Part shown: positions 24,881 to 53,055 of the stretch, piece after piece
Numbering within the stretch: the stretch's first letter is position 1
Layout: the number at the start of each line of letters is the position of its first letter
NCBI GenBank assembly: GCA_008632985.1
Contig: QPGO01000238.1
Location: 62,001-115,055 of the forward strand
Source: Psammoneis japonica
Taxonomy: Eukaryota
Direction: 5' to 3'
Length of the DNA: 53,055 nucleotides
Notes under the pieces: generated by a model
Database searches by the model: none
What the model was told of the DNA's origin: nothing
The model's input: the letters and a program-made list of their open reading frames with translations, nothing else
Translations under genes and position numbers: made by a program

Positions 24881-25684
24881 TGATTTTGAACAAGACTATA
24901 ACCGAAATCAACAGTACTTGAGATTCGTCCCATGAGGTTCACATTCATATACATTTTGACAAGGGGTCTGCAGTGGCGGACATTACAAACACGAGTACAT
25001 TGATGGTGGAGCCTACCGGTTCTGAATCTTGTCGGCTTATTGGTACCTTTGCGATTGCCTCTTCTTCCATAATGGATCAAGTTATTAGGGTGTTTTGGAA
25101 TGAAATCAGCAAAAAGGGCTTTTCAAGAAGAACTACAAGATTATGAAAAAGAATCTTTGAAACGATACCAAAAGGAATCATCATCAAGTACTGAATCATC
25201 TGGTGGATAGGTTACGTACCTCCTATACGTAGATATCAGTTGTCTTTCGTGTAACAATGCTACAGGAGTATCTTACAGAAAAGATAGTGCGTAACGGAAA
25301 CCAACACAGAGGAGAGAACAATGCTTTCACCGACACGTCTCAGGGAGGCAAATAACAAACTACTTGATCTCACATGAGTCCCGAAAGTTGAACCGTCAGC
25401 CGTACGGTGTCATTGGAAAGTATTCATCGTGGAAAACTATCTGCAGTGCAGAAATATTAATGATCAGCCCTTTCTAACTTTCCAATAAGTCATCTGGGTG
25501 TTGGCGAGTCCTGCGCTCTCCCTCGATCCCTGCTAATCACGACATCACGACTTTTTATGTTTGTTGGTCTTATATTACTATCTTACATGTTCTAATCCCC
25601 CAGCTTGTCTACTGCATCAGCAAAATGGTAGGTATCTGAAGCTTCACAAGTCAAGCACTGCTCGAGCCTACGCTTTGCTGAAGC

Positions 25685-26935: not shown

Positions 26936-28249
26936 GATCTTGACGATTGCTGCGTGATTGTAACATCAATTAACAAGAATGGGCGTCAACAATGGTTTAC
27001 TGGAGATGCGGAAAGAAAACGACCGATACAAACAACGATGTCCTGACACATACCCATTGCAGCAACAGATCCATCTTTTCCAGACGCCATAATGCTCTTT
27101 CTTCGAGACTTGGCCTTCTTTGCTTTCTGACCCAAAATAGAGATACAAACAACGACGCAATGAAGGAAATGAGAAGAAATGGATTGGACTTGCGTTCTTC
27201 TCCGTGAAAACGGCCGTAACGTAGAATTTGTATCAAAGCCTGCGATCCGAAACGCAGTAACGGCAGCATGGGACCAAGGCAACGGCTAATTGCTAAACTG
27301 CAACGGCTGTCTCTCAAAGCAGTAGGTTGACAAAACCACATCCAGAGCTCATGACGACGACTCGAAAGAAAGAGAATCAGCCCGGATAGGCATCACATCA
27401 CATCATGGTTCGGTGTGCAGCGGCTAATACAGCATCCACATTATCTACCCGCAATATACACACAAACACGACAAATATATGCGCACAAAACCCCACGCTG
27501 GACTTTTTTGTTCAACAAAAAAGACGAAACGCATACTCACAAAGAGCCGCCCTCCACGCTGATTTACAACCACTCACCTTTTTGGCTGCGGCACTCACGT
27601 GCGATGTTTTGACAGTACGAGCGCTTGAATAGGACGTGACACTGGCATTGTCGTTCGACATGGTATAGATGTCGTAGCAAACAAAATCTCAAGAGATTAT
27701 TGTGTCGTCTCTGTCAAGAATGAACAAAGTGCGAGTGAACAAGAGAGAGACGAGCTTGCCACGATCAAATTTCTCAACGAGGTTTGAGAAACGTGTTTCG
27801 AGCGTCATTTTCGGAAGAAAATAAAATATGTTTGGTGCTTGGGCAAACAAGCAAGGTGCGGTGGAAATTCTCTCTAATTCTACAGATGCGTGACATTCCC
27901 TCCACCATCAAAGAAATGTAACAGTGACGGGATAGCATCTTGGTCCATGACGACGGTGAAGACACACGGCAGCAGAGAGAAAGCAGATCGATTTTTGATG
28001 CACTGTTCTTTTTGTACAGGCAACAATAAGGTGCCAAGGCGGGAAATCATGGGATCGCTTGATGCGAAAACTGCACTTGACCGTTGCAAAGGAACCATGA
28101 GGTTTGTTACATCGCGTCCGTCAAAACCAGAATCACCATGGTGCGATATGGACGCTGCGTGGCATTTTTTTACCTGGTGTGGGCAGAAGGTTTTGATTAA
28201 CTCGACTCGAGCGAAGCGAGAGTCATCTCGCAAAAGTAACCCGGATGTT

Positions 28250-29480
28250 AAAGTGGGGAGAACTGACAACTGCACAAGCACCCATCACCCCAAAGGCAGC
28301 TGCACTCAAGGACAAGGAATGGCATGCAAAGCAAAATGTAACATACAGACAAGGAGCTTGTGCAGAAACAGGGTGTCCAGCCAGCACACCAGCACCAGCA
28401 GAGGAGGCTGCAAGAGGAGGCAGAGCACAGCACGAAGAAGCAAGAAGAGAAGCCACCACAGAAGGGGCAAGAGCCTGCACAGAGGACAGTTGGCATGTGG
28501 TGTGCCTTGAAGAACCAGGTGGATGGGGTGAACAAAATGCCAAAAAAAGGGGAAATTGTGAGACTTCTTTGGGAGCTACAAGCAAGCAGTTGTGTGAGAT
28601 GCTTTGCAGCACAACCCAACAAAAGCTCATTGCCGCCCCAGCAGGCCAGCCAAGAATCTCTGTGTGTTGTCCATGACCAAGCAGCACCCTGAACAGTGTT
28701 TTCAACACCACTTTGGGGTGTGACCCAGTTGTCATTGAGAGCTGCCTCACTGAAAACTGCTCCAGTGCTTGTTGACGAATGTCCAAAAGTGCGCACGCGA
28801 AAGCTCGCCTGAGCTTGCTGAAGATGTCTCTCTGCTGCTGTGCACTGAAGAAAAGGCAGAAGTTCACAGGCGTGCAGCATCTGAGGTGGCCAGAAATGAT
28901 TTCCAGCGTGTGCCAGTGCAAGGCAAGCAGTGGCAAAAGCAGGGTGGGAAAGCAAAGGCTTGCTTTGGTGAGGATGGCATGGGCAAAGTCAAGAAGCCAC
29001 ACAGAGAGAAACAAGCCAACTTGGTGCAGTCTTGGCACCAGGTGGTGGCCAAAGAGTGCACACCATTGTGCGCAGCAACTGCTTGTCAGGTGCCAGCCAA
29101 CAAGAGGGCTCAGCAGCGGCAGTGCTGGCCAGCTCCCAGCTGCCAGAGCTCGGCCAGCCTCTCACATTGCCAACTCAGAACACTTTGTGGCAGAGTTGAA
29201 AAGCAAAATGCTTTGATCACTGTGTGCAGCATGGCGGCAGGAAGGAAGTGGGTGAGACAAGCTTGAGGTGGGCGAGACAAGCTTGCTCTCCTCTCTCGCA
29301 CTGCAAAAGAAGAAACAACAACAGAGAGACAGGAAACAAGCAACAGCTGACAACAGCAATTCTTTCTGCTTGGAATGCCGTCACGTTTTCTATGTTCACT
29401 GTCCTCGTTGCTTGCGTGAGACTGGCGACATTTGTGCCACAAGATCTGTCTTCTCCGTGCCCGCTGCCGCATGACGGCGT
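28250..29480. mobile_element. TpA/CpG-depleted degenerate tract
   Basis: TA nearly absent, TG/CA excess; no recognisable protein. Confidence 0.45.
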
Positions 29481-29576
29481 TTTAAAGCTGTGTTTGACTA
29501 ACTTGATTAAAATGGCAAAGGGGCAATGCGTGATGACTCAAAAAATTTACCCCTGTAAGTAAGCAACAATTCGCCT

Positions 29577-29696: not shown

Positions 29697-30922
29697 CATC
29701 CCACATTGTTTGACGACCTGCCCGCTGCGTTACTAGTCTAATGTTTCGAAAGCACGGGGTTGTTGAACGGCGGACGGGCGACGAGAAAACCGTTTTTAAA
29801 AGCACAAGCGCCTTTTACCGTAAATCCGAATGTTTTGATTTCAAAAAATGCACCACTGATGATGTCAACGATGTGGGCACCATTGCAACTCCACACTATC
29901 ACATCTGCCACTGGAGAGCAGAGGTGCGACAAAAAATCCTTTCGTGTTGCATGAGGATGTTCGGCAAAGGGTGAAGCGCGACAGCTCGTCTGTGGGCTTC
30001 ATGCCGTTGCAAAAAAATGTTCGGCAGTGACAAGTCTGCAGTTGGTGCTGCATCTATGCTGCAGGACATGGGAACACAACGGAACTTTGTGTGTCATTCA
30101 GAGAAAGCCACGGATGCTCTACGATTGGGACAAAACAGCGCTTCATCGAACCAAGTCCTCGCCTCTTGCTCAGCGCCAATGTTGATTGTGAGTGATGCCC
30201 CCTCAAACATCAGAGGTGTCCAACCATCTCTAACTCTTCCTTTTTTTCGCAGGGTGTGATGCATCTTCTGAAGACACAGTGCAGCCTTCAACTTCGTTGG
30301 GGTTTCAAACTTCAACGGGGTTCAAAGTTTGCACAGACCCTGATGGTGTTGGCATCCCGTCCGCCATTGCTTCAAGACTCCTGCGCAACCTGGAATTTTC
30401 GCTAGATCCATCCTCTGCTGGGCTCCCATTTTGCACAGGATTGCAGCCACTGGGGAGTTCTGCTGTGGATGAATCCTCCTCTCCTTGCTTGCACTGAGCT
30501 CGAGCGCTTGGTTCAAATCGAAAAACACTGTCTCATTTCAGCCGTTTTTCGTTTGAAATTTCTAAAATTCACCCCAAAACAAGGGGGTTCCCAGCCTCAA
30601 TGGAATCTCCTGCAGAAGTGCATGACTGAGCATGCGGTGCGTGAGCAGATGATGAGCCTCGGGTGTGAAGAACCCATGTTGAATGGCTTTGTGTTGATTT
30701 TAAGAACATCATTTGTCAAGCGATCGAAACGCAGTGACTTTTTGTGCAACAGTCCTTCCAATCTGATGTGTGGCTTTAATGCGATCATTCATGACGTGTT
30801 GCCCGCAGGGGTGGACAGGCACGTGCACACCGCAGCAACTCGACCATCCCCTGTCTGAAACGTCTCCATCCAACGCAATGCATCGCATGCAACAACTGCT
30901 CCATCCCCTGTCTCAGCGCCCA

Positions 30923-31280
30923 AGGAACCCCCGCAAGAAAGTTTGTAGCCCCAAGGAATGCAAGCGCGAGAAGTTTGTAAAGCATCGGGAAACCCCGCGA
31001 GAAAGTTTGCAGCCCCCCAGGAAAGCAAGCGCGAGAAGTTTGTAGAGCGTCAAGAACCCCCACAAGAAAGTTTCTAGCCCCCCAGGAACGCAAGCGCGAG
31101 AAGTTTGTAGAGCATCAGGAAGCCCCGAGAGAAGTTTGTGGCCCCCCAGGAATGCAAGCGCGAGAAGTTTGTAGAGCGTCAGGAACCCCCGTGAGAAAGT
31201 TTGCAGCCCCCCAGGAACGCAAGCGCGAGAAGTTTGTACAGCAGAACGTCAGGAACCCCAGCGAGAAAGTTTGTAACCTC
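30923..31280. repeat. Minisatellite, unit about 64 bp, about 5.5 copies
   Basis: Unit approximately ggaacccccgcgagaaagtttgtagccccccaggaacgcaagcgcgagaagtttgtagagcgtca. Confidence 0.93.
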
Positions 31281-32611
31281 AAAGGACCCCAAAGAGAAAG
31301 CTGCAATTAGCACTGCAGAGCTGAATGTTGCACATGGGATTCAACGGATGTGACACAGGTGTGCATGTGTCCTGTTAAAAAATCGATTAAAAACAGATAA
31401 ACCGGATCTGAAAATCTTGTGTAAAAACGAGAATGACCCTCACCGAATTTTTAACGCGAAAAACGACACGGCCATGGCGACAAAAGCCGCTCGCGTTGCT
31501 CCCACACTGTTCCATGCTACAAAACCAAGGCATGAATCGACCCGTCTTGTTGATCAGACATTAAAATACAACAACCTGGATCATCCACAACAAACTTGGT
31601 GCTCAAATCGAGTGCGCACTCTTGACACCAAAAATGACGCCCTGCAGAGACCCACACAAATTCTGCGCAAAAATGAAATCACCAATCAACAACCCTGTTA
31701 CAAACGGCAACTGGCAACGCCACACATGCCACCTCAGCAATCCACCAACACATCACGAGGTGTGTCAGACAATGAAGGATACGCCCACATCAATGAAAGT
31801 GCCACACCACACAAACGGCGACAACAGTGAGCGGGTCATTGTCGATGATGCATGTTTGTGTGACTCCGATGGCCACGGATTGAGAATTTCACGCTGTGGG
31901 GGTAAAAGCGAAGACACACAGGCAGACGAAAAATGCATGACCTTCAGTCATGCATGTCTGCTTCTACTCACACAAACACACATGTGCGTGATGAGTCTGG
32001 CGGTCCTGACCGTCAACAGAAATCTTGCAGTCTCACTCTCTTTTGCGAGTGACTCTGAAATCTAGCCACTGTCTGGTAGAGCTGCCAGCAGAGAGCAGTG
32101 CAGCTACGACACTTCTGCCTCAAAGCAGCTGGCAGCTTCCACTCTAGAGAGTGGAGAGCAGCGACCATTCTCCACTCTCTGCTCTCTGCTGGCAAGAGCA
32201 GCCAGGGAGCAGAGCTCTGCGCCTCTCCACTGGAGCAGAGAGCCAATCATGTTGGAGAGGCTCCAATGTTCCTTTGCAGGTGACACTTGGACTCGGCTCA
32301 CAAAATTCATTCCACGTGCTTTTTGTCCCACCACAAGAGTGTTTCTGAGTCAAAGTTGACTGTTCCTTTTTTTTCTCAGACCAATTTCTGTCCTGAGACA
32401 AGGTGAGCTTGACTGAAGTTGCTTGATTTGTTGTCAGAGTCAACGAGACACACAACAAAGTGGCACAGCCTGAAATGGAAAGCAAGATGCAACTGGCATG
32501 TCTAAACAGCATCAAGAGGGTGCAAGTGTGGGGTCATGAGACATGGTGCCTCTGTTCCAAACTCAATTTGTGTTGGCCTCTGGTTCATGTGTGCTTGCAT
32601 CATGTGCAAAA

Positions 32612-32817
32612 TGGTGTTTCCCGAGTGCGCATTTTGATCATCCGACCCAAGTGGGCACTTTGGTTGGTGTGCAAATTTGTTGACAAAGTTGATTTTGCTT
32701 CCAAAAATTTGGCAAAAAACAATGTGGTTGGTCTGCAACAAATTGGTCAACCAAAGTGTTTTGGATTGACCAAAATGCCTGATTTGGTCAACCAAAATGC
32801 ACACTCGGGAAACACCA
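32612..32817. mobile_element. Small MITE-like element with 25-bp terminal inverted repeats
   Basis: tggtgtttcccgagtgcgcattttg (32612-32636) versus caaaatgcacactcgggaaacacca (32793-32817); 1 mismatch. Confidence 0.6.
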
Positions 32818-33816
32818 ACAAACCAGGTGTGAAGCCAGCAATGTCTGAGCCTGTGAAGCCACAGCAGTGGCAACACACAGCACACTGAGGGGGGCCATGT
32901 CCAGAGCTGCATGGAACTTCTTCAGATGAAACAGCACGGGGTTTGACCAGCCCACCATTGTGCTGTTGGTCAGTTGTTCAACCCCGCATCCTTGGAGTGC
33001 TGCACATCTGTGTGGGGGTTGGCACCACACAGCACATGTGGAACATGTGCCAACTCTGCTGCTTGTTCTCTCACAGCACTCACAGCATTTTTTGTGCATT
33101 GTCCTCATCATCTTAACTGGGGGTTGTCATTTGAGTTTGGGTGTAAAAACTGATGGTGCAGCTGCACCCCCTGACATGAGCTTGGTTTTTCCCACATGTG
33201 GCACAAACATGCAGCCACTCAGCATCAATGTGAGAGTGCTGTTGTGAAATGAAGAGCAGTTTGTGACTTTGGCTGACACCTGAGACATGAAATCTTATGA
33301 CAACATTGCCAAAATGGCAAAACCTTTGGTCATTTGTGCAAGTGCAGAGGGATGCCCAAATTTGGAGCTGCTCAAATCACATGAACCCGGGCTTTGGTTT
33401 TGAGGATCTGTGATGAACAACATCATGGACAACCTCTGGCTGCAGCAGAAGCAATGTCAATCGGGGTTTTTTGCCAGATTGTGAGTTGATTCAAACTGGT
33501 TGAAAAGGAAAAGGTGGCTCACTGCGCTGTTGAAGCAGCACATGACTGGAAAGAAAGAGATTGCCAAAACATGAGGGGCCCTCAAAACAGACTCTTTCAA
33601 AGAACGAGCACTTGCACTCACCAAAGCGGAGCTTTGCCTGCTCTTTGAAAGGTTTTCTGATGGCAGCAGGAGCCCTTGGAGGAACGCAAATGGCAAAAAA
33701 AAAGCTTCGCTGGCTTCAAAACAAACACAGAAAGAGTCATGAGCTCAGCACCATGAGCTGCTTTCCAAAAATCACATTCTTGAGCACCTGCACACCCCAA
33801 CTCCACAGTGAAAGGA

Positions 33817-34032
33817 TCGCAGCCAAGACTCCAAGCCAAGCAAGGAGAGGACCTCCTTGACTGGACCGAGAGTCACCGCGCGAATGCAGGAGCGAAATGG
33901 GTTGAAGGACGGACGACGGACGAGACGAGCGGAAACGAGGCCAGCCCAAGGGATCCCCTCATTGTCTGGCAGGATGGGAGACACCATGGCACTGTCAGAG
34001 GCGTCTCCCAGGAGATGCCAACAATGAAAATC
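33817..34032 (+). repeat. Split direct repeat A1
   Basis: 216 bp, differs from A2 at 4 dinucleotide sites. Confidence 0.95.
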
Positions 34033-34961
34033 GAATGGTTTTTCTCTCTCTCCTGTCAGTCAATGCTGAAAATCCCTTGCGTGGTCTGCTTGCGCAGCCG
34101 GGAGTGTCTCGTGCATTGGTGCTGTTTGTTGCCACGCCATTTCGGCGCTGTCCTGTGGATGCACCTCCCCAATTTTTTTCACCACTGGTGCTGACTACGG
34201 TCACGCCATCTTGGCGCCATGTCACGTGGGCATTGCTCTAAATCCTGACTGGGTCCGCTTGTCAGCGTGGACCGCTTCGGCGGCCGAGGATTGCCTCGCA
34301 CTCTGGCCTGTTTGCCACACCTTTCAATGGTGCTTTCTCACAAGGAGCACATCCTCATGTGGACGGTCTCAGCACCATTAAAAGTCCTGCATGGGCAAAC
34401 AGTGGCATGGCTTTTCAATCCGCCTGCCGCTTTTTCCTGAACGCCCATGTTGGGCCCCTTTTCTTTTGCCGCTCTGCGGTTCATGGTCATCGCCTTTCCT
34501 CTCGGCGTGTCCAATTTTTCCCCTCTCCCAGGGACGTGGTGTGTTCAGACTTGTGCACCAGCACACTGCAGTGTCGGAATTACCAGCTCTATCTGGTCGA
34601 CATCAATTGTGTGCACATGTGTGCACTCCCGTGAGGGTTTAGTCAAAACGAAATTTGCCACCACGTTTCGGGGGTTTTTCGTCTTCTCGCGAAATGCGCG
34701 CCATCACGATGATGAATGGTGATGGAAACTGACCCGTCACATGGGAATGAAACTTGGATTTCTTTCTCATCTCCATTCATTGGACAAGTGTGGGAATCGT
34801 GAAGGGTTGCGTTCGCGGAACCGACACGGTGTCAGCCAACGCTTGTCCTTCTCGAGCAATTTCCACACGCTGGTGTCCTTCACTTTCCGGTGAGATTGCT
34901 CTCACTTTTCCTTTTTGCGATCAGACGAGCCTTTGGTTTTCTGCTGCTCTGTTGTTCCACC

Positions 34962-37243
34962 ATGAACCACGCCCACGCTGCTGCCATCAACCGCGGTGAG
35001 CTCTCCGCTGCAAAGCGGCACTCCGCCGCTTTGCCCTCCTCCACGGGTGCGATCGAGTCTGTCTCAACTGCTGTCCACCATGACACCCAGAAGGAGCTGC
35101 GAGACCATGTCTTCACGACCTCTGACCTTTTCTGCGCGGTCTGCAATCGCAAGATTGCGGTTGTGGCGAAACCTCGCCCCAGGCAGCATGCTGATGGGAA
35201 TCTAAAGTGGATCGGGAGCCTCTCGGATACGATCGGCGAGGTCATCCCGATGTTTGGCAGTTGGACTCGTTTCCAAGGCCATGCAACCACTCTAAACCCC
35301 CAGGGCGCTGTGGATGCTCATCACCTGCCCAAGTGCGAACTCAGCCCTGACGAGATTGACGGTCCCGTTGGCAATGACGGCAACAACGTGCCGGCGTCGA
35401 TGGGTCGTCTCCATTTTGGGAATCCTTCCGGACCGGCAGAGCGTCCCTCCATCGTCGCACTCCCGATGTTCCTGCCAATCCCAATGGGCGTCACCCTTCC
35501 TGTTGACTTTGACCCAGCAGATCCCCCAGCATCCCTTGCCACTGACTTTCCGCTCGGAGTGGTTTGGGCTCAGGGTGTGTCCTGGTTGCTTCAGCACAAC
35601 GCGTCTGTCTCTGTCACGGAAGGCGGCCCTGTGTTTGAGCAGAACGGTTTTGCCATTGTCGATGAGTTTGCAGGCCTCAAGATCCACAATCTCGACGACA
35701 ATGATGCACAGATGCTCCAACCTCTGACGGATTGGTGTGCACTAGTCAAGACCACGATGGACGCCTTTGCGGATGAGACCTGGAGGCAACTCGGTGGAGA
35801 AGATCCCGCGCAGACACCAGCTCCCGCCGCCCCAGCCCAAGGCACCAACGGACAGGTTCCGAACCACACCATCAACATCCCGCGCCAGGACTCAAAGAAG
35901 GAGTCAGACCAGAAGCTGAGGGCGTGCGACATTGGCCACCGCTGGTCACTCTGTGCGTTCCGAGTGACTGCTGGCACAGGTCCGGAGGACCCGCCCATGA
36001 TCATCGTGGGCGAGCTTGCGGACCAAGCGGTCAAGATTCTGCAGGACACGTTGGCTGCCAATGCAAACCGTGACCTTGCGGATCTTGTTAAGATGGCTGT
36101 TGTTGCATCAGCCCGTGGTGACAGTGGTCTAGATGCTGGGGTCGATTGCAAGTGCACCACAGTCAACAAGGCCACACGGACTGTTTCCGCGGCTTTAATG
36201 TGGTTGCGGAGCCCCCGCAGTGTGGCCAGGCTTCGCACCGTATGAAGCTGTCTGTCTTTCCCTTTCTTCCCCTGAAGACTGCATCATCTTCATTTGCTGG
36301 TCTCAAGGACGAAGGGAGGACACTCCATCGGGCACTTGCCAACGGCTCTGACTGCAAGATCCCCGATGACGCGAAGGCAAGCGACCTTTGCATCCAAGGA
36401 AGGATGGACACTGCCAGCGATCTGTGGTCAGCACTTTGCAACTTTCGCTGTGTCCTTGGATGTTGGATCAAGGACTTCGACAATGCGGAGCTGTGGAAGT
36501 CCCTGGATGTGTGCGCAAAGGTTCTCTGGTCGCACCCGGGCCGTGCGTGGCTCAAGAATCTCGAGGACCCGAAACCAGTCGTCGCTGGCATCCTAGATGA
36601 TTTCCAGACTGTTGTCAAAGTCTACTTTGAGATCGGAGACTCTCCCTTGTACCGTCAGGCGGTAGAAACCGAGCGTCCGCTGAGCTGCCAGACAGCAAAG
36701 GACGCTCGCACTCTGGTCAAGTCCCTCATTGCGGACCTCAACACCGCGATCACGCGGGGCAAGCCTCTGGCCTTTGCAGAGGCATCTACATTGGCCCTTG
36801 TCCCCCCAGGCAACTCTGTGTTTCCCTCTGCTGCTAGCGGAACGAAGGACAATGCGACCAAGTCTGGTCAACCTCCGAATGAGAAGCCGCGCACAGGGGA
36901 AACAGATGAGAAAACCACCGAGCTCTGCAAAGCGATGGGTGTGCTCAATTTTTCGGGCACGAAGTGGCTCCCGACCAGCCCCGTTTTCTACAAGAAGCGA
37001 GGATCAGATCAGGAGGAACGTGTCTGCATGTGCTTTTGTACTGAGGGGCACTTCTGCAAGTTCCCCAACTGCCCGAAGCCCCACCCATCGTCTCTCTCCA
37101 AGATTCCGAGTGAAAAGAGGGATGCCTTTTGCCAATTTGTCAAAGACACCCCTGGACTCGATTTTGTCCCTGGCAAGGGCCCAGACGGTGCATCCCAATC
37201 AGGTTCAAAATTTTCTAGTCTATGCACCACACCCTGTTGCTAA
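34962..37243 (+). pseudogene. Gag-like ORF1 of the YR retrotransposon (frameshift near 36175), C-terminal Cys/His finger
   Basis: ORFs 34890-36245 and 36146-37243 overlap in different frames; C-terminal CMCFCTEGHFCKFPNCPKPH is CCCH-like; position upstream of RT; the first 451-aa ORF has no Tyr. Confidence 0.7.
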
Positions 37244-37323
37244 TGCAGTGTTGTCCAAAACTGTTTTGTTTTTACTCTTGATTAGTCTGCATTATCCCGG
37301 ATAGGTCCGTTCGTCTCATCGCA

Positions 37324-40212
37324 ATGGATGTCGACGACGACAGCGATCAGGAGTGCGAGGTGATCGATGCAGAAAAAGAAGAGACCGGAATGAGCATCGA
37401 TGATGCCATCCCAGCTGTTGACGCTGCACTTGCCACGTCGGTGAAAGAGCCGCACCCGAGCCTGCGCCGAGGTGCGGTCACGCCGCAGCCTCCCGTCGAC
37501 GAGAATGAGCTGATTGAGCCATTCCCTACCTTCTCCATGGTCCATAAGAAGAAAGGGACCAATCTGATTCCTACAATCAACAACGGCTTCAACAAGAAGG
37601 CACGTGAGCACTTTGCCAATGCGGAACTGTCACCGGGCGTGCGTGCCAAACTGGACCAAAAATTCGGCAAGGAAAGCTTGAATCAATGTTTCTTGTTGGA
37701 AGCGTGTTTGCGTCATGTGTTGTCACCGCTGTTGAAATCCGGACACCTTTTGCCACCGGTTGATTGCGTGAGTGACTTGTCTGCCCAAATCGCCTTTGGG
37801 GGCGATTGGGAGAACTTCGGAGCGGCCATCCCGGAAGCAGCCGAGTTCATGAGTCTGGTCCAGGAACATGGCGACATCGACTTTAATCCTCTCCAAGGCT
37901 ACCCCAAGGGATGGCAAAAGGAGACAACGGTCAATGCGGATAGAGCCGCGATGACAACTGCCGCATTGTTGCATTTTGATGGCGACCCAGCAAACCTGGT
38001 TCGCTGGGTTGGCGGACCGCACGTCGGTGAACACAGATGCACGCAGAAAATGCTCCGCTTTCTACAAGGTCGTGTGCCCGACGAGACAATGGCACACGTT
38101 CGCCGCATCTTCCAAGACGGGGCGCCAGCGAAATGCAACACTGCTTTCTCTGAAGCAAACTTCCAAGCAGCTCTCAAGTGCGGAAACCACAAGGCCGTTG
38201 ACGCTGCACCTGACAAAACATTGGCGGCAGTCGTCAAGGACAATCGCAAGGGTTTCACGCTGCTTTTTGACCAGCGTCTGGTGCCATGCTTGCTGAACTG
38301 CCATCTCACTCCTCAGGGGATGGTGGACCTTGACAAGAAATGCAAGAGTCCGCGCCCCATCTTCGACAGTGCGATGCGAGCGACTCCGGGCGGTGCAGCA
38401 ATCAACGACACGTTGGACCTCAAGCACGAACCGCCGATCACGTTCCCATCAGCGGAAATGGACTTTATGGTGTGGACATGGAACATGAGAATGTCCTGCC
38501 CACATGAGGAGATCTGCCTTGGCAATGATGATGTGAGTGGCGCTTTCCGCAACATGAAGCACCACCCGAACCTTGTCGGGATGCATGCCAGCGTCCAGTG
38601 TGGACCAGGCGTCCTACAGACGGGTTGCACCTTCGGCGACAAGACCAACCCAAGCAACTGGGACGCCATTGCCAACGCAAGACAACATCTTGCTCAACAC
38701 TTCTGGCTGGTGCCCAACATGGTGGAGCTCGCCCAGCAGTGTCTCCCGTCGACATCATTCGCGGAACCTCCAACAGCTGAAGAGGTGGCGTCATTCTGTC
38801 CTGCGGAAGCAGACGCTGTCAATCCGGGCATGTTCCTAGACGGCAACCGTCTCCCACCAACATGCAAGCACCACATCGATGACAACTTCTACGGAGACAC
38901 ACGTGACTTGATGAAAAGAACAGTCGCTGTGAGCGCCCTGGCCGTGTGCATTGTGTTGGGCTTCCCACGCGATGAAACTCCGGATTTCCCAAGCAAAGAG
39001 AAACTGGACACACTGTGCTCGCATCTCCGACGAGCCCTGGGAAGGCACTTCAACTCAAGAGCACTGTCGGTGGGAATGCTCCCATGCAAACGAGAACAGT
39101 TCCTTGAAACTTTGCAAGAATGGTGTGACAAACAACGGCACACACTGTTGGATGCAGCGAACCTGAATGGTCAATGTGAATTCCATGCGCGGTGTTGTCC
39201 ATGGGCTCGGCCGAATTTTTTTGCACTCCAGAATTCCGTGCGGCGGGCTGTGGTCGTCCAATGCGCCATTGTCAAACGAATCATGGAGCGACAAAATTTC
39301 AAATTAAATTTTGAAACTCAACTGCCGAGTCATCTCAGGAATGGGCTGCCGAGCTCACTCGCGCGCACACAAGCCCAGCTCCTCTGTGAGCTGAAGATCG
39401 AGATCCCGATGACATCCGATGTCATTGATGTGATGAAGGATGCAGCATCCTACATCGAATCGACGCCAGACCCATGGACAGCACCGATTGGATGTGTCAT
39501 GCTGCGAGTGCCACATTGCCAAGCAATTGGAGACGCCAGTGACGCAGGCGGAGGAGCCCACTGCGCGGAACTCAAATTTTGGTTCGCATTTCTTTGGGGA
39601 CCAAAAATGGCGAAAGGGCTCCGGCTGAGGAAGGCCTCCGACCCAGAGTGTGTCCATGTCAACACAGCAGAGTTTGTTGTCATCACACTCAAGCTGGCAG
39701 CTGCAATTGTCTGCATGGAGACTATGACCCGAGAACGGGCCCATGAGTTCTTCCGGAACGGCGTCGTCCCGCTGCACCTGGTCGTCAGGAGTCGTTCAGA
39801 CAACATGGTGTCGGTCAACCGGTCCAACAAAGCAACGTCAAAGTCGCCACAGGGGCAACGATTTGTTTGGGTCTTCTGCGAATTGCTCCGCCGTGCTCGT
39901 GCCAACTTCAACGGTGATCACATCTTTGGCGACGAAAATTTTGTTGCCGACGACATCTCACGACCTTCTGTTTTTGCCTTGATCTCGCATCGCACCCATT
40001 CTGAACAGCTGTTTCGGAAGTGTCCCTTTCTGAAGACCTGGGACTGTTTCCAGCCGAGTCAAGAGCTGCTGCAGCTCCTCTCCTCACAGCTGTCTACCAA
40101 GCACAGAATGGCACCCCAGATCCCAAACGACTTGGGACAGCTCGTTCCCGCAGAATCCATTTCCTCTGCTTTTACAAGAGTGCGAAGTGGCACCTGGGAG
40201 ATCCGGAAATGA
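37324..40212 (+). pseudogene. Reverse transcriptase-RNase H ORF of the YR retrotransposon; open frame but YxDD mutated
   Basis: RT motifs DDVSGAFR, TFGDKTNPSNW and HIDD (expected YxDD); RNase H motifs GDAS, HVNTAEF, SDN and HIFGDENFVADDISR. Confidence 0.9.
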
Positions 40213-41261
40213 CTGTGATTGGCAAGGACCCAAAGTGCTGCCAACTGGTGCCAGCTGTGCATGCGTTGCATCTAGCTAGCGGCTCCACTCTCTACTGCAA
40301 GAACATCTCCTCAGGTGCCATCAAGGAATGCGTCCACGACGTGTCAACGTTCGTGTCTCTGTTTGGTTCCACGCATCGGGACGTCCGTAAAGACAACAGC
40401 GTGGACACCAAGATGGGGTGGATCCTCAGGAGAGCATTTGATGAACTCCAACGGTGCGAGAAAGTCCTGGAACGGCGCGAGTCATGCACGTTGCTGATGC
40501 AGCAACGAGCGACGTTGACAGCAGACAGCATGCGAGAAACCGACCCGGACGCGATCGAGGTGGTCCTCGCTGACTGGTTTGAGATTGGGCCAATGGCCGG
40601 CTTGCGAAGCATCGAATGGGCTCAATCCAATGAGCACTCAGACCTGGAGAACCCAAGGCTGAACATCTTCGAGGAGACCTGCGTGTTCTGCCTCGACGAC
40701 ATCCGCTGCGAGACAAAAGACAAGCACCGACACACCGGAGCGGATTGTCTCATCCCCAAGCAAGAGGATGTCGAAAGCATGTGCGTCATGTTCCGAGCTC
40801 AGAAGAACATGCACAATGGCGAGGAACGCCAGTTTGCTGTGAATCTTGATGGCAAGCACGACTTGGCAAAGCAGATGCTTCGCGTCATCCGATGTTTCGT
40901 GCAGGTCCGTGGCAAGGACGACAAGATCTGCCCCCTTGCTGTCTACTTCGATCCAAAGGAGGACAAGTGCCATCTCGTCACGTCCAAGAAAATCGAGACC
41001 CACATGTGCCGAATTGCCGCGGAAGTTTGCCACCTCGACCCGGTGAAAGATGAGAAAGCTCTCAGCAAATGGTCGGCTCACTCCCTCCGTGTTGGAGCCT
41101 GCAATGTCCTTCACGAGATGAATTTTAGTGGCGAGCAGATTAAATGGCTGCTCAGATGGCGATCTGATGCCTTTGTGGCTTGTCTCTGCAACTGCCTGGG
41201 TCTTTCCCAGGCCCATTGTCGAGCTCTCGATAAGGCGGCACCCATGCCGTTTTTCGATTAA
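40209..41261 (+). pseudogene. Tyrosine recombinase of the retroelement; catalytic Tyr replaced by Cys
   Basis: GLRSIE (catalytic R), FRAQKN (K), HSLRVGA (HxxR), LRWRSDAFVACL where Y is expected at C (TGT, 41181-41183). ATG at 40209 overlaps the RT stop (ATGA). Confidence 0.92.
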
Positions 41262-41529
41262 TCCATTTGTGCGGATTCAATGTGTCCCCTTTGTGTGTGT
41301 CCTCTCTGCGTGACATAAAATCGCACACTGTTGTCCTGTTGCACCCGAAATTTCAATTTTGAAATTCGAAATTTGATCCTGGCAACGGGACTGTACACAT
41401 GCATTCAGGAGGAACATTCGTCCCTCCATCGTGTCTGAAGAAAATGGATTTTTTTTTTCCGGTTGGCTCTGCCTCCGATGACATGGGCGCGTTCGCAATG
41501 CTTTCAGCATTCCGCATCGGCAGCATGGT

Positions 41530-42209
41530 CTGTGCACAGTGAAAAAGGGAACCAATTGCTTGGCACTGGCGATTCCAAGCCCAGTCCCACATCCTAATTG
41601 CTTCACCCACTGGCGACTATTTTCATCGTGGCAACAACATGAGTCTACACACGGATGTGAGCACTGCGCATGTTGTGGACGACACCAATGTGTTGCATCG
41701 ACAGACAAGAGACGCTTCCACTGTGCCATGTCATCGGAGTGCAGACACGGATTCTCGCAGCCAAGACTCTGAGCCAAGCAAGGAGAGGACCTCCTTGACT
41801 GGACCGAGAGTCACCGCGCGAATGTAGGAGCGAAATGGGTTGAAGGACGGACGACGGACGAGACGAGCGGAAACGAGGCCAGCCCAAGGGATCCCCTCAT
41901 TGTCTGGCAGGATGGGAGACACCATGGCACTGTCGGAGGCGTCTCCCAGGAGATGCCAACGATGAAAATCAAAAACCCACCACTCCCTCCCCTGTGCACA
42001 GTGAAAAAGGGAACCAATTGCTTGGCACTGGCAACTCCAAGCCTGGTCCCATGTCCCAATTGCTTCACCCACTAGCGACCATTTTCATCGTGGCAACAAC
42101 ATGAGTCCACACACGGACATGAGTGCCACGTACATTGTGGACGACACCAATGTGTTGCATCGACAGACAAGAGACGCTTCCACTGTGCCATGTCATCGGA
42201 GTGCAGACA
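41530..42209 (+). repeat. 3' repeat block B1 (41530-41747), A2 (41755-41970), B2 (41992-42209)
   Basis: Direct alignment of B1 with B2 and of A2 with A1. Confidence 0.95.
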
Positions 42210-43413
42210 GCCGAGGCGGAGGCAGGGAATCCGTGGGATTCCACCATGATGACACCACCAACCAACCCAGAAACTGCAACCTGAGGGCATTGGGGGTCTT
42301 TGGGGGTCCCCAGGTGACACTTTGGGGACTGTGGTTGAGCATTGCAAGGCTGTCCTGGCTTGTGCAGTTGTCGCCCAGTCACGTCATCTCACAAAGGAAG
42401 AGACTTGAATCCCAGCTCAGCAGCAAAAGCAGGTGACACTTTAAGAGCCATGGGCAAAGAGCATTGCAAAGTGCCCCTCTTGAACAGCTGCAGCCCTCAG
42501 CCACTTTTTCCCGCAAAGGATGAGACTTGAACATCCCAACTCCACAGAGTGAAAGGACACCGTGATGGGGCGACCAACCAACTCAACAACTGCAGCCTGA
42601 AGGCATTGGGCTGAGCATGAAAAAAGTGAAGTCTGCAGATTTTTGAGAGAAAAGGCTCTCCCAACACAGAGATTCCAGCCACCCCCGCCACTGCACCACA
42701 CTTTGCACTGATTTGTGTTCCAGTTCCTGTCAATCCATTCTGCTGGACAGCCAGATCTCACACAAAAATTGTGCCACTGAGCACGGGTGTGATTTCCATC
42801 ATCTTTCCCAAAACAAACTTGCTGGGAGTGTTGTGGTTCCAGCCTTTGTTCTGTCTTGAGTTGGGACCAAGATGGAAGGCGGGAAATGGGGGGCAAGCCG
42901 TCCTTTCTTCACGCGACATTGCCGTTTTCTACTTTTACAGCAGCGCAACAAAAAATCCGACCGCCGTTCACCACAAACAGATCCGACAGCCTCACACAAG
43001 AGGTCTGTTGCCCCTGCATACTGACCGCTGTTTAAATGTTTTCGCATCATTGCTTTTACCGGTACACAATGTCTCACATCTGTTATGAGGCGTTTTGTGC
43101 GCGGCCGTCAAGGCTCCGCATCTCAATCTGTTGCGACACGGCATCACGCCCATGAGGCATCTGAATGACTCCAGCTCTTGAATTTTTGTTTGAAGACGCG
43201 ACCAATCGCGCTAATACATCTAATGCTCTATCCGCGATGCTTTCAATCATGGATCGAGCGAACGATCGACACTCGACGAGCGGCGAATCAATTCAAGCAC
43301 GAACGATCCGAGCTGTTGCACAACACGCTTCTCACTCTGAACAAGACACATGCACGAATGAGTGACAGCTGAACGTCAGTGCGCTGCTCAATCCTAACAA
43401 CACCAAAGCAGCC

Positions 43414-50619: not shown

Positions 50620-51850
50620 GAGGCAGGTTCACTTTCGAGCAAGGGCAGCGAGGCAGGATCACGGTCTCCCGAAGACCAGAGCCTGTCACGTAGCTTCTTC
50701 ATGAGGACCTCAACTGTCAGATCATGCCATCCACACAGGTCCAAGGTCCAACACGCCTTGGTCAATTTCTCTGTCTTTGTCATTTTCCCATTCAACTCCA
50801 TGTCCTAATGACAAGCACTTTGCAAGCTCTGACAGCTCCCTCAGATGTTCGCCGTTAAGCCCATCCTGCAAAAGTAGCAAAAATGGAGTTCTCGCACCAT
50901 CACCTTCTGCCTCAACGGGTGCAGTTCCAGCCAGGTTGAGAAAATGACAGCAATCTCTGGGCACCACTTTCATTTGCACCCCCTTCAATGAGTCTGCATG
51001 GACAACACTTGAGATCTGTCCTGAAGCGGCAGTTGAGTGACATGTGCCTTGGTGCATTGATGTGCCATGAACAAGGCCAAGTAGATTGCAATCATCATCC
51101 ATCAGGGGACAACCACTGCACCCAGGCACAGAATGAGTGACCACTGTCAATCACGTTTCCTGTGTTTCGATGACCTGCCCTTTTGTGTGAATGCTTCCGT
51201 GCCCAATCACCAGTCTTCCAACCACACCTCTGCACCTTTCGAGCTTTAGTTTCTGACGGGAAAAAGATCCAGAATTCTCAAGCCTTTTCTTTGTGTCACT
51301 GCACAGCTGGGCGCAGGCAATGTCATTCTTGCCACTTGAGACATGGTCTTCTGGCAAGTTCAAGTTTGTCATTTGAAAGGGTGACGCGTTGCCAGCAGGA
51401 TCTTGGCATTTTTCGTCTGCTCGCCAACGCAGTTCAAACACAGGTGGTGAGCACCCTGAAGCTGCATGTGCAGCAACACAACGGGATTGCTTTGCTGCTT
51501 CATCATTTGTTGCTTGGAGGTTGATGAGTTCCACAAGGACATGCGCTGCAGACACAAGGTGGACAAACTTGCCAACGGCCATGACGAGGCCATGGCCAAT
51601 GTTTGCCCTGTTTCCATCATCATCGCCAATGTCTCCATTGTTTTTGCTGTGTCCACAAGGACTTGTTTGATTGTTGGCGTAAACTTGGATGCATTTTTGT
51701 CTGTGCTTGTCCCAAGAAGCTTGTTCTCAAGCTCTTCAAACTTGCTGTCAAGATTTTTTAAAGGCTTTTCCAACCTCCTCTTGTGTGATTCGGCGCAATC
51801 TGGTTTCAAGCTCTTGTTCTTGGGCTGTCATTTTCTACCTGCCACAATGG
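50620..51850 (-). pseudogene. Trypsin-like serine peptidase with N-terminal coiled coil, hypermutated and disrupted
   Basis: Triad motifs in order across broken frames: LVSAAHVL (His), NDIACA (Asp), PGCSGCPLMDDDCNLLGLVHG (Ser); lies in a TpA-depleted tract. Confidence 0.65.
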
Positions 51851-53055
51851 TTCAGCTCGGGTCATGGTGGAAGCACAATGTGGGAGCATGACGGCAAAGA
51901 ACCATGGTTGGTTTTTGGCTGTTTCAACTTTCGACGGCTTTTGAATTCTTTTTTGTGCGGTGATGTGGCTTCAACTTGTGCGACTAAAATCTCAATCTGG
52001 AGCTTGATCAGCCTCGAACATTTCCCTCCACAACTCCTTTCTACAGCACATCAAAACTGCCTTGGCATTTGGAGCACCTTCTGTGACCGTTCCTTGCATG
52101 CACTCCCAATGGTGAGCTCGTTTGACCACAAAGCAGCAGCTTCAAATTGGTGCTCCGTTTTCTGTGGGTGGAGCACACGCCATCACTTTCCAGTGGCCGC
52201 ATGGCTCTCCTGTCAACAGCAGCAGATGGAGAGAACACTCGGCCACAAAGCAATCTCTTGTCAGCTCAACTGGGCTGACAATGACAGTCTTTTGCCTTTT
52301 CATTGACTGTTTTTTTTAAATGCTTCTGGTGCAGATCAATTGCCCATGAGTTGTGGTGCTGTCTCAGCACCATGGCTGAAGCAGCTCTTTTCGCAGAGCC
52401 AAAATTGATTTTTGTGCAGAGAGATCACAGCTCTGAAACCAAGCAAGCTCCAATGTCATTGCTGCTGAGCTGCTGCCATTGACCTTTGTGTGCTCCCTTC
52501 TGTCTCTCAGACAAAGCTGTTGTGACGTCAATGGGGGTCATTCCAATGGCTGCTTTTCACAATGGGGGGTCTTCCATTTGTGCTCAGAGTGACAAGAACT
52601 GTCTGAAGAAGATGCCTTGGTCTGCAAGACAAACAAGCAGAGTGAGGTGTTTCAATCTGTCCTTTCTGCAGAGACCACAGTGGCAGTGAGTGCAGCATGC
52701 CCCCCATCTGAAGTTGTGGTGGTGGAAGGGCAAACTGTTTTTTTCCAAGCACCCAAATTGCCCTTCTTGCACTTTCTGAAACCCCGTTGACATGCCAGTG
52801 CAGCCTTTCCATGCTCCAACATGGACCAAATTGAAAGAATGGTGCTTTGCATGACATCGCCAAGGTGGAGGTCACTGTTGTCTTTTGTTGACTTAAAACT
52901 TCTTACAATCACTCTCTGCCAGAGCACAGAACCATGGAAGCACCCTGGGCTCTAGAACCTGGACTGCTCTGTGGACAATTGCCCCTTCTGCATGAGGTGC
53001 AGGTGGTGTGAGAGATGCCCTTGGAGCCTCGTTGGCAGCTCTGCCTGATGAATGT
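51850..53055. mobile_element. TpA/CpG-depleted degenerate tract continuing off the window
   Basis: Few TA or CG dinucleotides; TG/CA excess. Confidence 0.45.

Follow-up and report, generated by a model that had tools for sequence, protein, structure and literature searches.

Probable TpA-directed A:T>G:C hypermutation of a Ngaro-type element in a genome of the diatom lineage

The element and its genes

The window analyzed here is a 53,055-nucleotide stretch of contig QPGO01000238.1 from Psammoneis japonica. Among its host genes lies an 8.4-kb element (33817-42209) with the order A1-ORFs-B1-A2-B2, i.e. with two interleaved pairs of split direct repeats, whose features are as follows:

33817-34035, plus strand: A1, the 5' split direct repeat of the element, 219 nt, 97% identity with A2
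34803-36245 and 36122-37243, plus strand: two overlapping ORFs, gag-like by position only
37282-40212, plus strand: pol-like ORF P0001, 976 aa, putative RT/RNase H, apparently hypermutated; 1312 relatives at E<=0.001
40005-41261, plus strand: tyrosine recombinase ORF P0002; 97 relatives; catalytic Tyr codon now TGT
41530-41747, plus strand: B1 repeat, 218 nt, 91% identity with B2
41653-41675, plus strand: cluster of five apparently converted TpA sites in B1; B2 partner 42115-42137
41755-41973, plus strand: A2 repeat, 219 nt, 97% identity with A1
41992-42209, plus strand: B2 repeat, 218 nt, 91% identity with B1

Split repeats of the form A1-ORFs-B1-A2-B2 characterize elements of the Ngaro/DIRS order in the accessible portions of the literature (PMC3783388, PMC8547959, PMC7192593). 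The present element resembles these, as far as they are described there, in its repeat layout, its multi-copy nature and its ORF order (gag-like, pol-like, tyrosine recombinase), and we posit that it is a Ngaro-type tyrosine-recombinase element with the A1/A2 and B1/B2 pairs as its split direct repeats, an assignment that belongs to the broader reading that we regard as probable below. It differs in that the Cafeteria Ngaros, in the same portions of that literature, match PF00078 and PF00589, whereas the pol-like and recombinase proteins found here match no Pfam model. Neither gag-like ORF has a Pfam match; a Pfam search with P0001, five of its homologs and 34 aligned members gave nothing but one weak match to RVT_3 (E=0.13), and the recombinase ORF and its homologs gave none (four element ORFs and eight homologs tried). 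Sequence-profile searches of PDB with the pol-like and recombinase families likewise returned 0 matches.

The recombinase identity of P0002 is nevertheless confirmed by its predicted fold: the model of the family (pLDDT 83) recovers 38 PDB matches at E<=0.001, and those listed are all Cre, Tn1549 Int, XerH, Flp or XerA. The alignment columns R201, K267, H359, R362, W385 and Y393 are invariant or nearly so in the family, and we take them to be the catalytic Arg/Lys/His/Arg/Trp/Tyr set. The consensus of the pol-like family carries motifs resembling xxDD and DAS..G.GA, which presumably correspond to those of RT and RNase H, and on sequence grounds the "retro" status of the element is putative. 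We considered whether HIDD in the pol-like ORF could be a mutated YIDD but rejected this, as HHVDD is the native family consensus.

The proteins of the element are strikingly poor in tyrosine. The gag-like ORFs contain 0.0% and 0.8% Tyr, and P0001 contains 0.3% against 2.0-4.4% across 36 homologs. At the 15 columns where Tyr is the plurality residue in the family, P0001 has Cys in eight, His in two and Tyr in just two, while control columns are largely kept (F 18/26, H 13/16, N 16/17 and W 12/16). Similarly, four of the six Tyr-majority columns of P0002 are now His or Cys, including the catalytic Y393, which is Tyr in 18 of 18 homologs and Cys here (codon TGT). This copy of the element is dead.

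The family to which it belongs is multi-copy: 811 contigs match at 80-100% identity, the summed contig depth is 190-850 over the element as against 60 in the flank, and the differences between copies are mostly transitions. Other copies were found neither within the 53-kb window nor in a scan of viral contigs, and a metagenome scan recovered only 39%-identical relatives, all of them devoid of the repeats.

Differences between the paired repeat copies

The repeats were located by a repeat search of the window and then compared base by base without gaps. B1 and B2 differ at 19 bases, which fall in 13 sites, in agreement with the count in the first-pass annotation. All 19 differences are transitions (P=4.5e-4 assuming a transition:transversion ratio of 2:1), and six adjacent pairs occur among them over the 218 positions (P=0.002 under random placement). 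Five sites are TA in one copy and TG or CA in the other, and the two copies, as had been claimed, retain TA at different places: B1 at 41595, 41618 and 41646, and B2 at 42073 and 42131. Six sites are reciprocal, with TG in one copy facing CA in the other (B1 positions 41582, 41590, 41656, 41662, 41665 and 41671), and the remaining two comprise a CG/CA (41571) and another T/C (41573). The example string quoted earlier from this comparison was located in the cluster at 41653-41675 and its partner at 42115-42137. B1 and B2 have 0 TA in common as against eight CG; the latter are interspersed among the changed sites, two of them within the 41653-41675 cluster.

The A1/A2 pair is less diverged, with 0 TA and 14 CG in common. 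Here, the earlier count of four differing sites (TA/CA, TG/CA and two CG/CA) holds for those named, but there are five in total, the fifth being another CG/CA at 34033, three bases short of where the repeat ends. The differences thus amount to one reciprocal TG/CA, one TA/CA and three CG/CA. Sites of the TA/TG/CA type account for 11 of the 13 differing sites in B and two of the five in A, and for 10 sites in an inverted-repeat pair elsewhere in the window.

Loss of TpA across the window and the state of host genes

The depletion of TpA extends well beyond the repeats. The TA observed/expected ratio (o/e) is 0.14 inside the element versus 0.39 outside, and the G+C fraction of the element is 0.55 versus ~0.49 in its surroundings. 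In a profile of 500-bp windows, TA o/e falls below 0.25 in 43 of 106, grouped in eight blocks. The principal regions, together with two further repeat features, are:

7501-10500: TpA-erased, CpG-poor patch between host genes; complex sequence with no simple repeat; TA o/e 0.00-0.24 and CG o/e 0.17-0.47 over 7501-10000
12386-12625, plus strand: left arm of an inverted repeat, 82% identity with 13394-13633 on the opposite strand
13394-13633, minus strand: right arm, partner of 12386-12625
23501-25000: TpA-erased, CpG-poor patch (500-bp profile)
30915-31307, plus strand: tandem array of 65-bp units in which one site has three states (TA in three units, CA in two, TG in one, with no CG)
31501-43000: largest TpA-erased domain, the element plus older flanks that are also CpG-poor; TA o/e 0.00-0.31 (500-bp profile)
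51001-53055: last patch of the window, likewise TpA-erased and CpG-poor (500-bp profile)

The inverted-repeat pair bears the same signature as the B repeats, with seven reciprocal TG/CA sites, three sites with TA in a single copy, 0 common TA and 11 common CG, while two repeat pairs in TA-normal DNA have six common TA each and 0 reciprocal sites. Adjoining the element, the TA-free flank at 33300-33831 is single-copy by contig depth, and a contig of depth 60 matches it with 0 differences over 532 bases. Another contig joins 33814 to 42575 and may represent an empty site. The CG o/e of the old TpA-erased patches is 0.1-0.5. They yielded no recognizable TE protein, one ORF having been tried (28226-29161, minus strand), for which no homologs were found; foreign DNA is a putative target in these patches.

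Host genes are spared. The host ORFs retain 1.3-4.0% Tyr, and the host ACCase, whose nearest homologs are from Triparma (78%) and diatoms (73-76%), keeps eight of 11 conserved Tyr with 0 turned to Cys or His. These homologs point to a host of the diatom/bolidophyte lineage; a dinoflagellate origin was considered and dropped, a spliced-leader motif having given 0 matches, and an Atlas look-up with the ACCase yielded only clusters labelled Streptophyta, which carry no information on lineage. The TA o/e of the host genes is itself also low, at ~0.3-0.7.

A proposed process and its alternatives

We consider it probable that the repeats of this Ngaro-type element record a TpA-specific A:T>G:C hypermutation of resident double-stranded DNA. 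Under this proposal, repeat copies that were identical at first would have been exposed, as resident duplex DNA, to a process that turns each TpA into TpG or CpA, the two copies being hit independently of each other and on either strand. About 86% of the TpA in each copy would already have been converted, with other positions hardly altered. The same process would have stripped about nine in ten TpA from the whole element, raised its G+C by about five points and turned Tyr codons into those for Cys or His, that of the recombinase catalytic Tyr included, and the other intergenic patches of the window may well bear its mark. Conversion of TpA never makes a stop codon; hence, long open frames are left on both strands. 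Site specificity, direction, action on both strands, excess over the background and the sparing of host genes are plain in this record, and we infer from it a targeted activity, akin to genome defence, directed against silenced or foreign DNA.

As for the chemistry, the leading candidate is an ADAT/ADAR-like deamination of adenine on DNA. That an enzyme deaminates adenine in 5'-TA-3', with the resulting inosine read as G, is a tentative suggestion that we would put at somewhat under even chances. Thymine hydroxylation in dinoflagellates reportedly prefers TpA, which brings up a related but rather unlikely alternative, namely that thymine at TpA carries a modification (5-hydroxymethyluracil-like or similar) and mispairs with G in the integrated DNA, with no adenine deamination involved. 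As TpA is self-complementary, a T>C change on one strand is the same as A>G on the other, and sequence cannot separate the two chemistries. However, the data presented here give no evidence of such a modification in this lineage, and the accessible text of the preprint describing the closest known process (bioRxiv 10.64898/2026.01.13.699255) proposes an ADAT2-like adenine deaminase, albeit without proof. The same text observes that the 5' U preference of ADAR fits the TA motif.

The hypermutation that we favor would act on integrated DNA. With TA as the ancestor, the inferred products are four TG and four CA in B1, with three TA kept, and three TG and six CA in B2, with two TA kept; over the repeats they total eight TG and 12 CA, with both kinds interleaved within 17 bp in each copy. 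The presence of TG and CA products in each copy implies that both DNA strands were hit, which supports the first-pass claim that mutation acted on both strands of integrated DNA. Single-strand RNA or cDNA editing of one polarity is excluded, as that annotation had held; the exclusion concerns polarity on a single strand and leaves deaminases as such in play.

A more elaborate version of editing, in which an adenosine deaminase acts before integration on both the RNA genome (TA>TG) and the minus-strand cDNA (TA>CA) during retrotransposition, strikes us as improbable. In its favor, B1, A2 and B2 would lie on one RNA or cDNA, such that independent editing is possible in one cycle, and the coding sites lean towards sense A>G (Tyr>Cys 11 versus Tyr>His 3, p=0.057). 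We had entertained this sense-strand bias in its own right and dropped it, for it faded in the full polarised count. Both data sets lack a clear polarity, with 12 TG versus nine CA in coding sites and the opposite lean in the repeats, and the signature also appears in the inverted-repeat pair and in the single-copy flank adjoining the element. Moreover, in Bigelowiella natans the corresponding changes arise de novo in integrated DNA, according to the accessible text of the preprint (bioRxiv 10.64898/2026.01.13.699255).

The proposal of TpA conversion in resident DNA further depends on TA being the ancestral state. That B1 and B2 were the same at insertion is assumed by analogy with models of DIRS/Ngaro replication; the ~99% identity of the non-TA positions provides a safer basis than this assumption. 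For B, the numbers of shared, single and reciprocal TA are 0, 5 and 6, and independent conversion at p~0.86 per copy predicts 0.4, 4.3 and 6.4; with the three repeat pairs pooled (0, 9 and 14), the TA-ancestor model has a goodness-of-fit p of 0.81. Against this stands a very improbable account by ordinary C>T deamination, in which the reciprocal sites descend from methylated CpG and the single sites from RIP-like CpA>TpA changes. Reassigning the reciprocal B sites to CpG gives 8, 1 and 6 versus an expected 4.2, 8.6 and 2.2; with the CpG rate taken from the single changes, the probability of at least six reciprocal sites is 9e-14, and none of 20,000 simulations was as extreme as the pooled CpG-ancestor counts (33, 8 and 14), whereby the pooled CpG model is rejected. 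The eight CpGs that remain intact in both B copies amidst the reciprocal sites also speak against it, as does the depletion of TpA (o/e 0.14), given that RIP enriches this dinucleotide.

For the coding changes, the conserved residues of the protein homologs served as the outgroup for polarity. Changes were found in 114 conserved columns, among which 29 need at least two changes and seven are ambiguous; the 78 unambiguous ones comprise 30 transversions and 48 transitions. The latter include 12 TA>TG and nine TA>CA as against 0 TG/CA>TA (21 versus 0), which is contrary to the C>T account, along with nine CG>TG, six CG>CA, three TG/CA>CG and nine others. We hence regard A:T>G:C, i.e. TA to TG or CA, as the direction supported by the sequences, and TA as the supported ancestral state at reciprocal sites, at the 13 B sites by way of the model. 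The decay of CpG is active all the same: the A and B pairs together have four single CG/CA sites, 15 polarised coding changes are CG>TG or CG>CA, the old patches have their low CG o/e, and 15 of the 34 listed best-supported sites of difference between element copies are CpG-type (a further six are reciprocal TG/CA, and 0 are TA single), so that CpG decay is also at work in the element family. The B1/B2 sites are absent from the 40 listed among 1589 contig differences.

The excess of TpA conversion over the background is large. Conversions amount to ~1.97 per TpA per copy, as against a background of one change in 874 copy-sites that are neither TpA nor CpG. The ratio is ~1700, or roughly 1000-fold, with a wide interval since the background is a single change; TA converts ~26 times faster than CpG. 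The overall B1/B2 divergence is 8.7% versus ~0.2% at other non-CpG sites. No preference for the 3' neighbor of the converted A was evident (G8, T6, C5, A1 versus G12, T9, C8, A3).

We attach as little credence to an artefact as to the C>T account, whether from systematic mistakes in base calling or polishing at a modified motif, or from an assembly that fused family copies into a chimera. Several copies of the family exist and 62 contigs can be placed at two positions in the window, and a chimera of B1 and B2 is possible; if different family copies were joined in the assembly, the B1/B2 comparison would measure divergence between copies rather than within one element. Even a chimera, however, would preserve the record of two copies in which TpA was converted independently. 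The exact match of the TA-free flank to a depth-60 contig and the 202 contigs that match the element at 99% or more also argue against error, with the proviso for both that the public run may be the assembly's own data, and the loss of Tyr codons and the regional TA profile are independent of how the repeats are paired. The least probable account, in which TpA/UpA is kept low by selection or compositional constraint (RNA stability or codon usage) with no mutational process, can appeal to the widespread avoidance of UpA and the low TA of the host genes, but is at odds with the turning of the invariant catalytic Tyr and of 10 of 15 conserved Tyr positions into Cys or His, and with adjacent non-coding repeat copies that went to opposite products at the same sites.

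Relationship to known systems and wider implications

TpA-specific hypermutation of resident DNA, as proposed here, resembles fungal RIP in that dense transitions strike a single dinucleotide of resident DNA on both strands, mobile elements are disabled and compositional islands arise. However, RIP is a C:G>T:A process, mostly at CpA, that generates TpA as well as stop codons and makes G+C fall, whereas here TpA is destroyed, no stop codon is possible and G+C rises. The RIP signature is absent from the element, as seen in its low TA o/e, elevated G+C and 0 polarised CA/TG>TA. The decay of methylated CpG likewise yields TpG and CpA on both strands and runs here as a second, slower process; yet it starts at CpG and fails to explain the 0 common TpA, the eight intact CpGs of B and the 21:0 polarity. 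ADAR/APOBEC editing is comparable as hypermutation of mobile elements by base deamination, but affects one strand with one polarity per event, in contrast to the two polarities within 17 bp in each copy and the involvement of non-retro sequence seen here.

In the literature searched, diatom papers included, TpA hypermutation is reported only for B. natans, in the accessible text of a preprint (bioRxiv 10.64898/2026.01.13.699255). The present case extends this just-described process to a further lineage and a further type of target: the signature now appears in the diatom lineage, which belongs to another supergroup branch, and its target there is a tyrosine-recombinase element. As an internal clock, the repeat pairs give direction, strand symmetry and relative rate without experiment. 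If the process is general, the enzyme could be traced by comparative genomics as a deaminase or base-modifying gene common to the affected lineages, and would represent a natural TpA-specific A-to-G activity on DNA. Such generality would also account for the G+C-rich "ORF deserts" without stop codons by which gene prediction is led astray in such genomes, and would mean that insertion dates from repeat divergence are badly inflated unless TpA-derived sites are masked (compare 8.7% with ~0.2%).

On balance we lean towards a TpA-directed defence in a stramenopile of the diatom/bolidophyte lineage, of polarity opposite to that of RIP, acting at ~1000 times the background on integrated mobile-element DNA and having wiped TpA from ~40% of the window. 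It would prefer ATA/TAT, spare TTAA/CTAG, and kill genes without stop codons through the loss of Tyr and Ile codons and AT-rich signals; together with the rhizarian report, this would make the process widespread or ancient in SAR.

In the mutation-accumulation lines of B. natans, as the accessible text of that report has it, TpA>TpG/CpA changes occur at >1000 times the background in integrated viral DNA, and the genes depleted in TpA show an enrichment of TE-type domains (Mettrop et al., bioRxiv 10.64898/2026.01.13.699255). As far as that text goes, the likeness is close: changes are at TpA only, to TpG or CpA depending on the strand, in the direction A:T>G:C, and at ~1000 times the background. 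The same portions of the report also allow several differences to be drawn. B. natans is a chlorarachniophyte (Rhizaria), while the ACCase of the host here is closest to those of Triparma and diatoms; the evidence there consists of de novo mutations in culture, and here of an evolutionary record in paired repeats and codons; and the targets shown there are inserts of a giant virus and of a virophage, as opposed to a tyrosine-recombinase element and unannotated patches. In the older patches of this window, unlike in B. natans, CpG loss accompanies TpA erasure. Finally, the erasure is more pervasive here, with TA o/e <0.25 in 43 of 106 windows versus a 5% tail at <=0.43 in B. natans.

The element and its relatives

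The two repeat pairs, A1/A2 and B1/B2, are components of a single mobile element, and their coordinates give the order A1-[ORFs]-B1-A2-B2 across 33817-42209.

Features of the element (repeats from a repeat search)
33817-34035: A1 repeat, 219 nt, 97% identical to A2
34803-37243: two gag-like frames, between A1 and B1
37282-40212: pol-like frame P0001, 976 aa, between A1 and B1
40005-41261: frame P0002, 418 aa, between A1 and B1
41530-41747: B1 repeat, 218 nt, 91% identical to B2
41755-41973: A2 repeat, 219 nt, 97% identical to A1
41992-42209: B2 repeat, 218 nt, 91% identical to B1

The same split-direct-repeat layout defines the Ngaro elements of the DIRS order in published accounts (PMC3783388, PMC8547959). 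Neither the four frames nor those of their homologs that were searched matched Pfam; despite this, P0001 and P0002 are both members of large families, with 1312 and 97 relatives, respectively, at E<=0.001. Modelled from 30 sequences (pLDDT 83), the P0002 family matches Cre, the Tn1549 integrase, XerH, Flp and XerA, a predicted fold that confirms P0002 as a tyrosine recombinase. P0001 is a putative reverse transcriptase by motif resemblance, and a PDB sequence-profile search with its family returned no match.

The source organism carries many copies of the element family: in a public run, 811 contigs match it at 80-100% identity (202 at >=99%, 196 at 95-99%, 204 at 90-95% and 209 below 90%), and summed contig depth is 190-850 on the element versus 60 in the flank. 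In one contig (depth 54), 33814 is joined to 42575 with 16 additional letters in the middle, which may represent a haplotype with the empty site, or else a paralog. In a second contig, 42241 is followed by TT and then by 33819, a head-to-tail or circle-like element junction.

Differences within the repeat pairs

Compared without gaps, B1 and B2 differ at 19 bases in 13 sites, and all 19 are transitions (P=4.5e-4 at a 2:1 transition:transversion ratio), with six adjacent pairs among them (P=0.002 under random placement). Five sites are TA versus TG/CA, six are reciprocal (TG versus CA), one is CG/CA and one is another T/C, exactly the classes claimed in the first-pass annotation; its further claim that each copy keeps TA at different sites also holds, with three retained in B1 and two in B2. 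For A1 and A2 it had listed four sites; we find five (one reciprocal, one TA/CA and three CG/CA), the extra one being a CG/CA. None of the 40 inter-copy differences listed, out of 1589 from contigs on the element, falls within B; the 34 inter-copy sites listed include 15 of CpG type, six reciprocal TG/CA and seven transversions.

TpA as the probable ancestral state

From a pair alone, a reciprocal site requires two changes from either a TA or a CG ancestor. Under a TA ancestor, B has no shared, five single and six reciprocal sites, and a model in which every TpA converts independently per copy, with TG and CA equally likely as products, fits these at p=0.86 conversion per copy (expected 0.4/4.3/6.4). 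Under a CpG ancestor, the eight intact, one single and six reciprocal sites compare with 4.2/8.6/2.2 expected, and the probability of at least six reciprocal sites is 9e-14 at the CpG rate taken from single changes. With three repeat pairs pooled, goodness-of-fit of the TA model is p=0.81, versus 0 of 20,000 simulations equally extreme under the CpG model. Patchy methylation does not rescue descent from CpG, since a 17-bp cluster of five converted B sites encloses CpGs intact in both copies.

As an outgroup we used alignment columns with >=60% homolog agreement where the element copy differs (n=114; 29 require at least two changes and seven are ambiguous). Among 48 unambiguous transitions, TA>TG accounts for 12 and TA>CA for nine, as against none in the opposite direction (TG/CA>TA); the remainder are CG>TG (9), CG>CA (6), TG/CA>CG (3) and others (9). 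The set also holds 30 transversions, as expected for proteins sharing only about 40% identity.

Tyrosine codons bear the same mark. Tyrosine makes up 0.3% of P0001 versus 2.0-4.4% in 36 homologs, and at 15 Tyr-plurality columns P0001 reads Cys at eight, His at two, Phe at two, Tyr at two and Ala at one; residues taken as controls are retained (F 18/26, H 13/16, N 16/17, W 12/16). P0002 has His or Cys in four of six Tyr-majority columns, and one column with Tyr in 18/18 homologs is now a TGT codon. Host ORFs in the window contain 1.3-4.0% Tyr, and the host acetyl-CoA carboxylase (ACCase) retains eight of 11 conserved tyrosines, with none changed to Cys or His. Counts, the protein-conservation outgroup and tyrosine codons thus decide for TA as the probable ancestral state, and the earlier proposal of TpA conversion independent in each copy stands (pooled p=0.81; polarised changes 21 versus 0).

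A reading of the pol motif as a lost Tyr was ruled out, HHVDD being native to the P0001 family. The closest recombinase relative (P0005, 49% identity) contains just 1.1% Tyr and has Cys in a column where Tyr is conserved; it may be a further hypermutated copy, from a different assembly.

Strands, rate and timing

With TA ancestral, the products would be four CA and four TG in B1, and three TG and six CA in B2; across A and B, eight TG and 12 CA are interleaved without runs. Because the products are mixed in each copy, both strands were hit within each. In the polarised Tyr/Ile codons of 37282-41261, sense-strand A>G exceeds T>C (p=0.02; Tyr>Cys 11 versus Tyr>His 3, Ile>Met 4 versus Ile>Thr 1). 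This excess is probably chance, the full count being 12 versus 9 and that of the repeats 8 versus 12.

Only one of 437 aligned positions outside TA and CpG differs in the A and B pairs and neither pair shows a transversion; therefore, the copies were recently identical, whatever the replication mechanism. TpA conversions amount to ~1.97 per TpA per copy versus 1 in 874 copy-sites elsewhere, a ratio of ~1700 with a wide interval, as one background change underlies it; TA conversion is ~26 times faster than that of CpG. B, with ~18 inferred ancestral TpA, diverges more than A, with ~3, because of TpA content rather than age. The element retains 62 TpA; survival-rate scaling implies ~440-690 ancestrally and a G+C gain of 4.5-7.5 points, in agreement with the G+C-rich block at 34-42 kb.

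The signature beyond the element

The inverted-repeat pair 12386-12625/13394-13633 has seven reciprocal and three TA single sites, no shared TA and 11 shared CG, whereas the TA-normal pairs 50278/50411 and 45844/45974 each share six TA and lack reciprocal sites. One site of a 65-bp tandem array reads TA three times, CA twice and TG once, with no CG. Of 106 500-bp windows, 43 have a TA o/e below 0.25, and these lie in eight blocks between host genes. The 500-bp profile marks these almost TpA-free patches outside the element:

7501-10000
23501-25000
28501-29500
32001-33500
51001-53055

In these patches CG o/e is 0.07-0.5 and CA+TG o/e reaches 2.1; in the element, where TpA is lost and CpG retained, CG o/e is 0.7-1.0. 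We read the patches as older targets where slower CpG decay caught up; two processes of unequal speed seem to converge on TG/CA. One ORF from the patches had no homologs.

Survival of TpA is non-random: a 5' A (ATA/TAT) accompanies 10% of the TpA surviving in the element and 9% of those in the patches, versus 27% in host DNA, and TTAA, CTAG and CTAC are enriched (62, 70 and 1020 sites; chi-square p=1.7e-7 and 9e-9). The bias suggests that the process favours certain flanking bases, the host control being imperfect as it is shaped by coding.

Three metagenome contigs with pol relatives (39% identity) are mutually 99.7-99.9% identical, with TA o/e of 0.52-0.60. TA versus TG/CA accounts for 1-4 of 7-10 substitutions per pair. 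These tiny numbers, from non-independent pairs, hint that a relative of the element is subject to the same bias in a different organism.

Mechanism and known precedent

The change of resident DNA seen here is specific to TpA, runs A:T>G:C, affects both strands at a high rate and leaves host genes alone. The first-pass observation holds, and its interpretation, mutation of both strands of resident DNA, is supported. Inosine pairs with C, and TpA is identical on both strands. We posit that a targeted activity would act on silenced or foreign DNA, with deamination of the adenine in 5'-TA-3' as the candidate chemistry; a modified thymine mispairing with G would yield the same sequence pattern. Editing of RNA and minus-strand cDNA during a single retrotransposition cycle could pass for two-strand change inside the element, but leaves the inverted-repeat pair and the single-copy flank unexplained. 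Assembly chimerism among family copies would alter the meaning of B1/B2 but not the process inference. A base-calling artefact is argued against by a depth-60 contig matching the TA-free flank (33300-33831) with 0 differences, albeit from a run that may be the assembly's own data.

In the preprint of Mettrop et al. (bioRxiv 10.64898/2026.01.13.699255), Bigelowiella natans mutation-accumulation lines gained 302 nuclear mutations, of which 231 map to one integrated giant-virus region and one virophage region; all but one of the 231 are A>G or T>C, these being all on TpA, >1000 times background and confined to some lines. They propose an ADAT2-like adenine deaminase. In the literature searched, diatom papers included, we found no further report of the signature. 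The present host is another alga, and TpA erasure in the window covers far more sequence than the 5% tail in B. natans. A process with a single earlier description, in 2026, is thereby recorded in a new lineage and on a new type of target. The window's ACCase (best match 82%, Triparma 78%, diatoms 73-76%) offers a single-gene lead to a possible diatom/bolidophyte lineage.

By-products for reading frames

The genetic code permits no new TAA, TAG or TGA in any frame from TpA to TpG/CpA conversion, which explains why 33000-43000 holds, over its two strands, 41 stretches that run for at least 100 codons without a stop; these would mislead gene callers. The multidomain host ACCase (261-5844, minus strand) is spread over three long open frames, and a single in-frame stop parts two of these. 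Short introns may stay open in a TA-poor genome, and ORF length is therefore a poor guide to exon structure.
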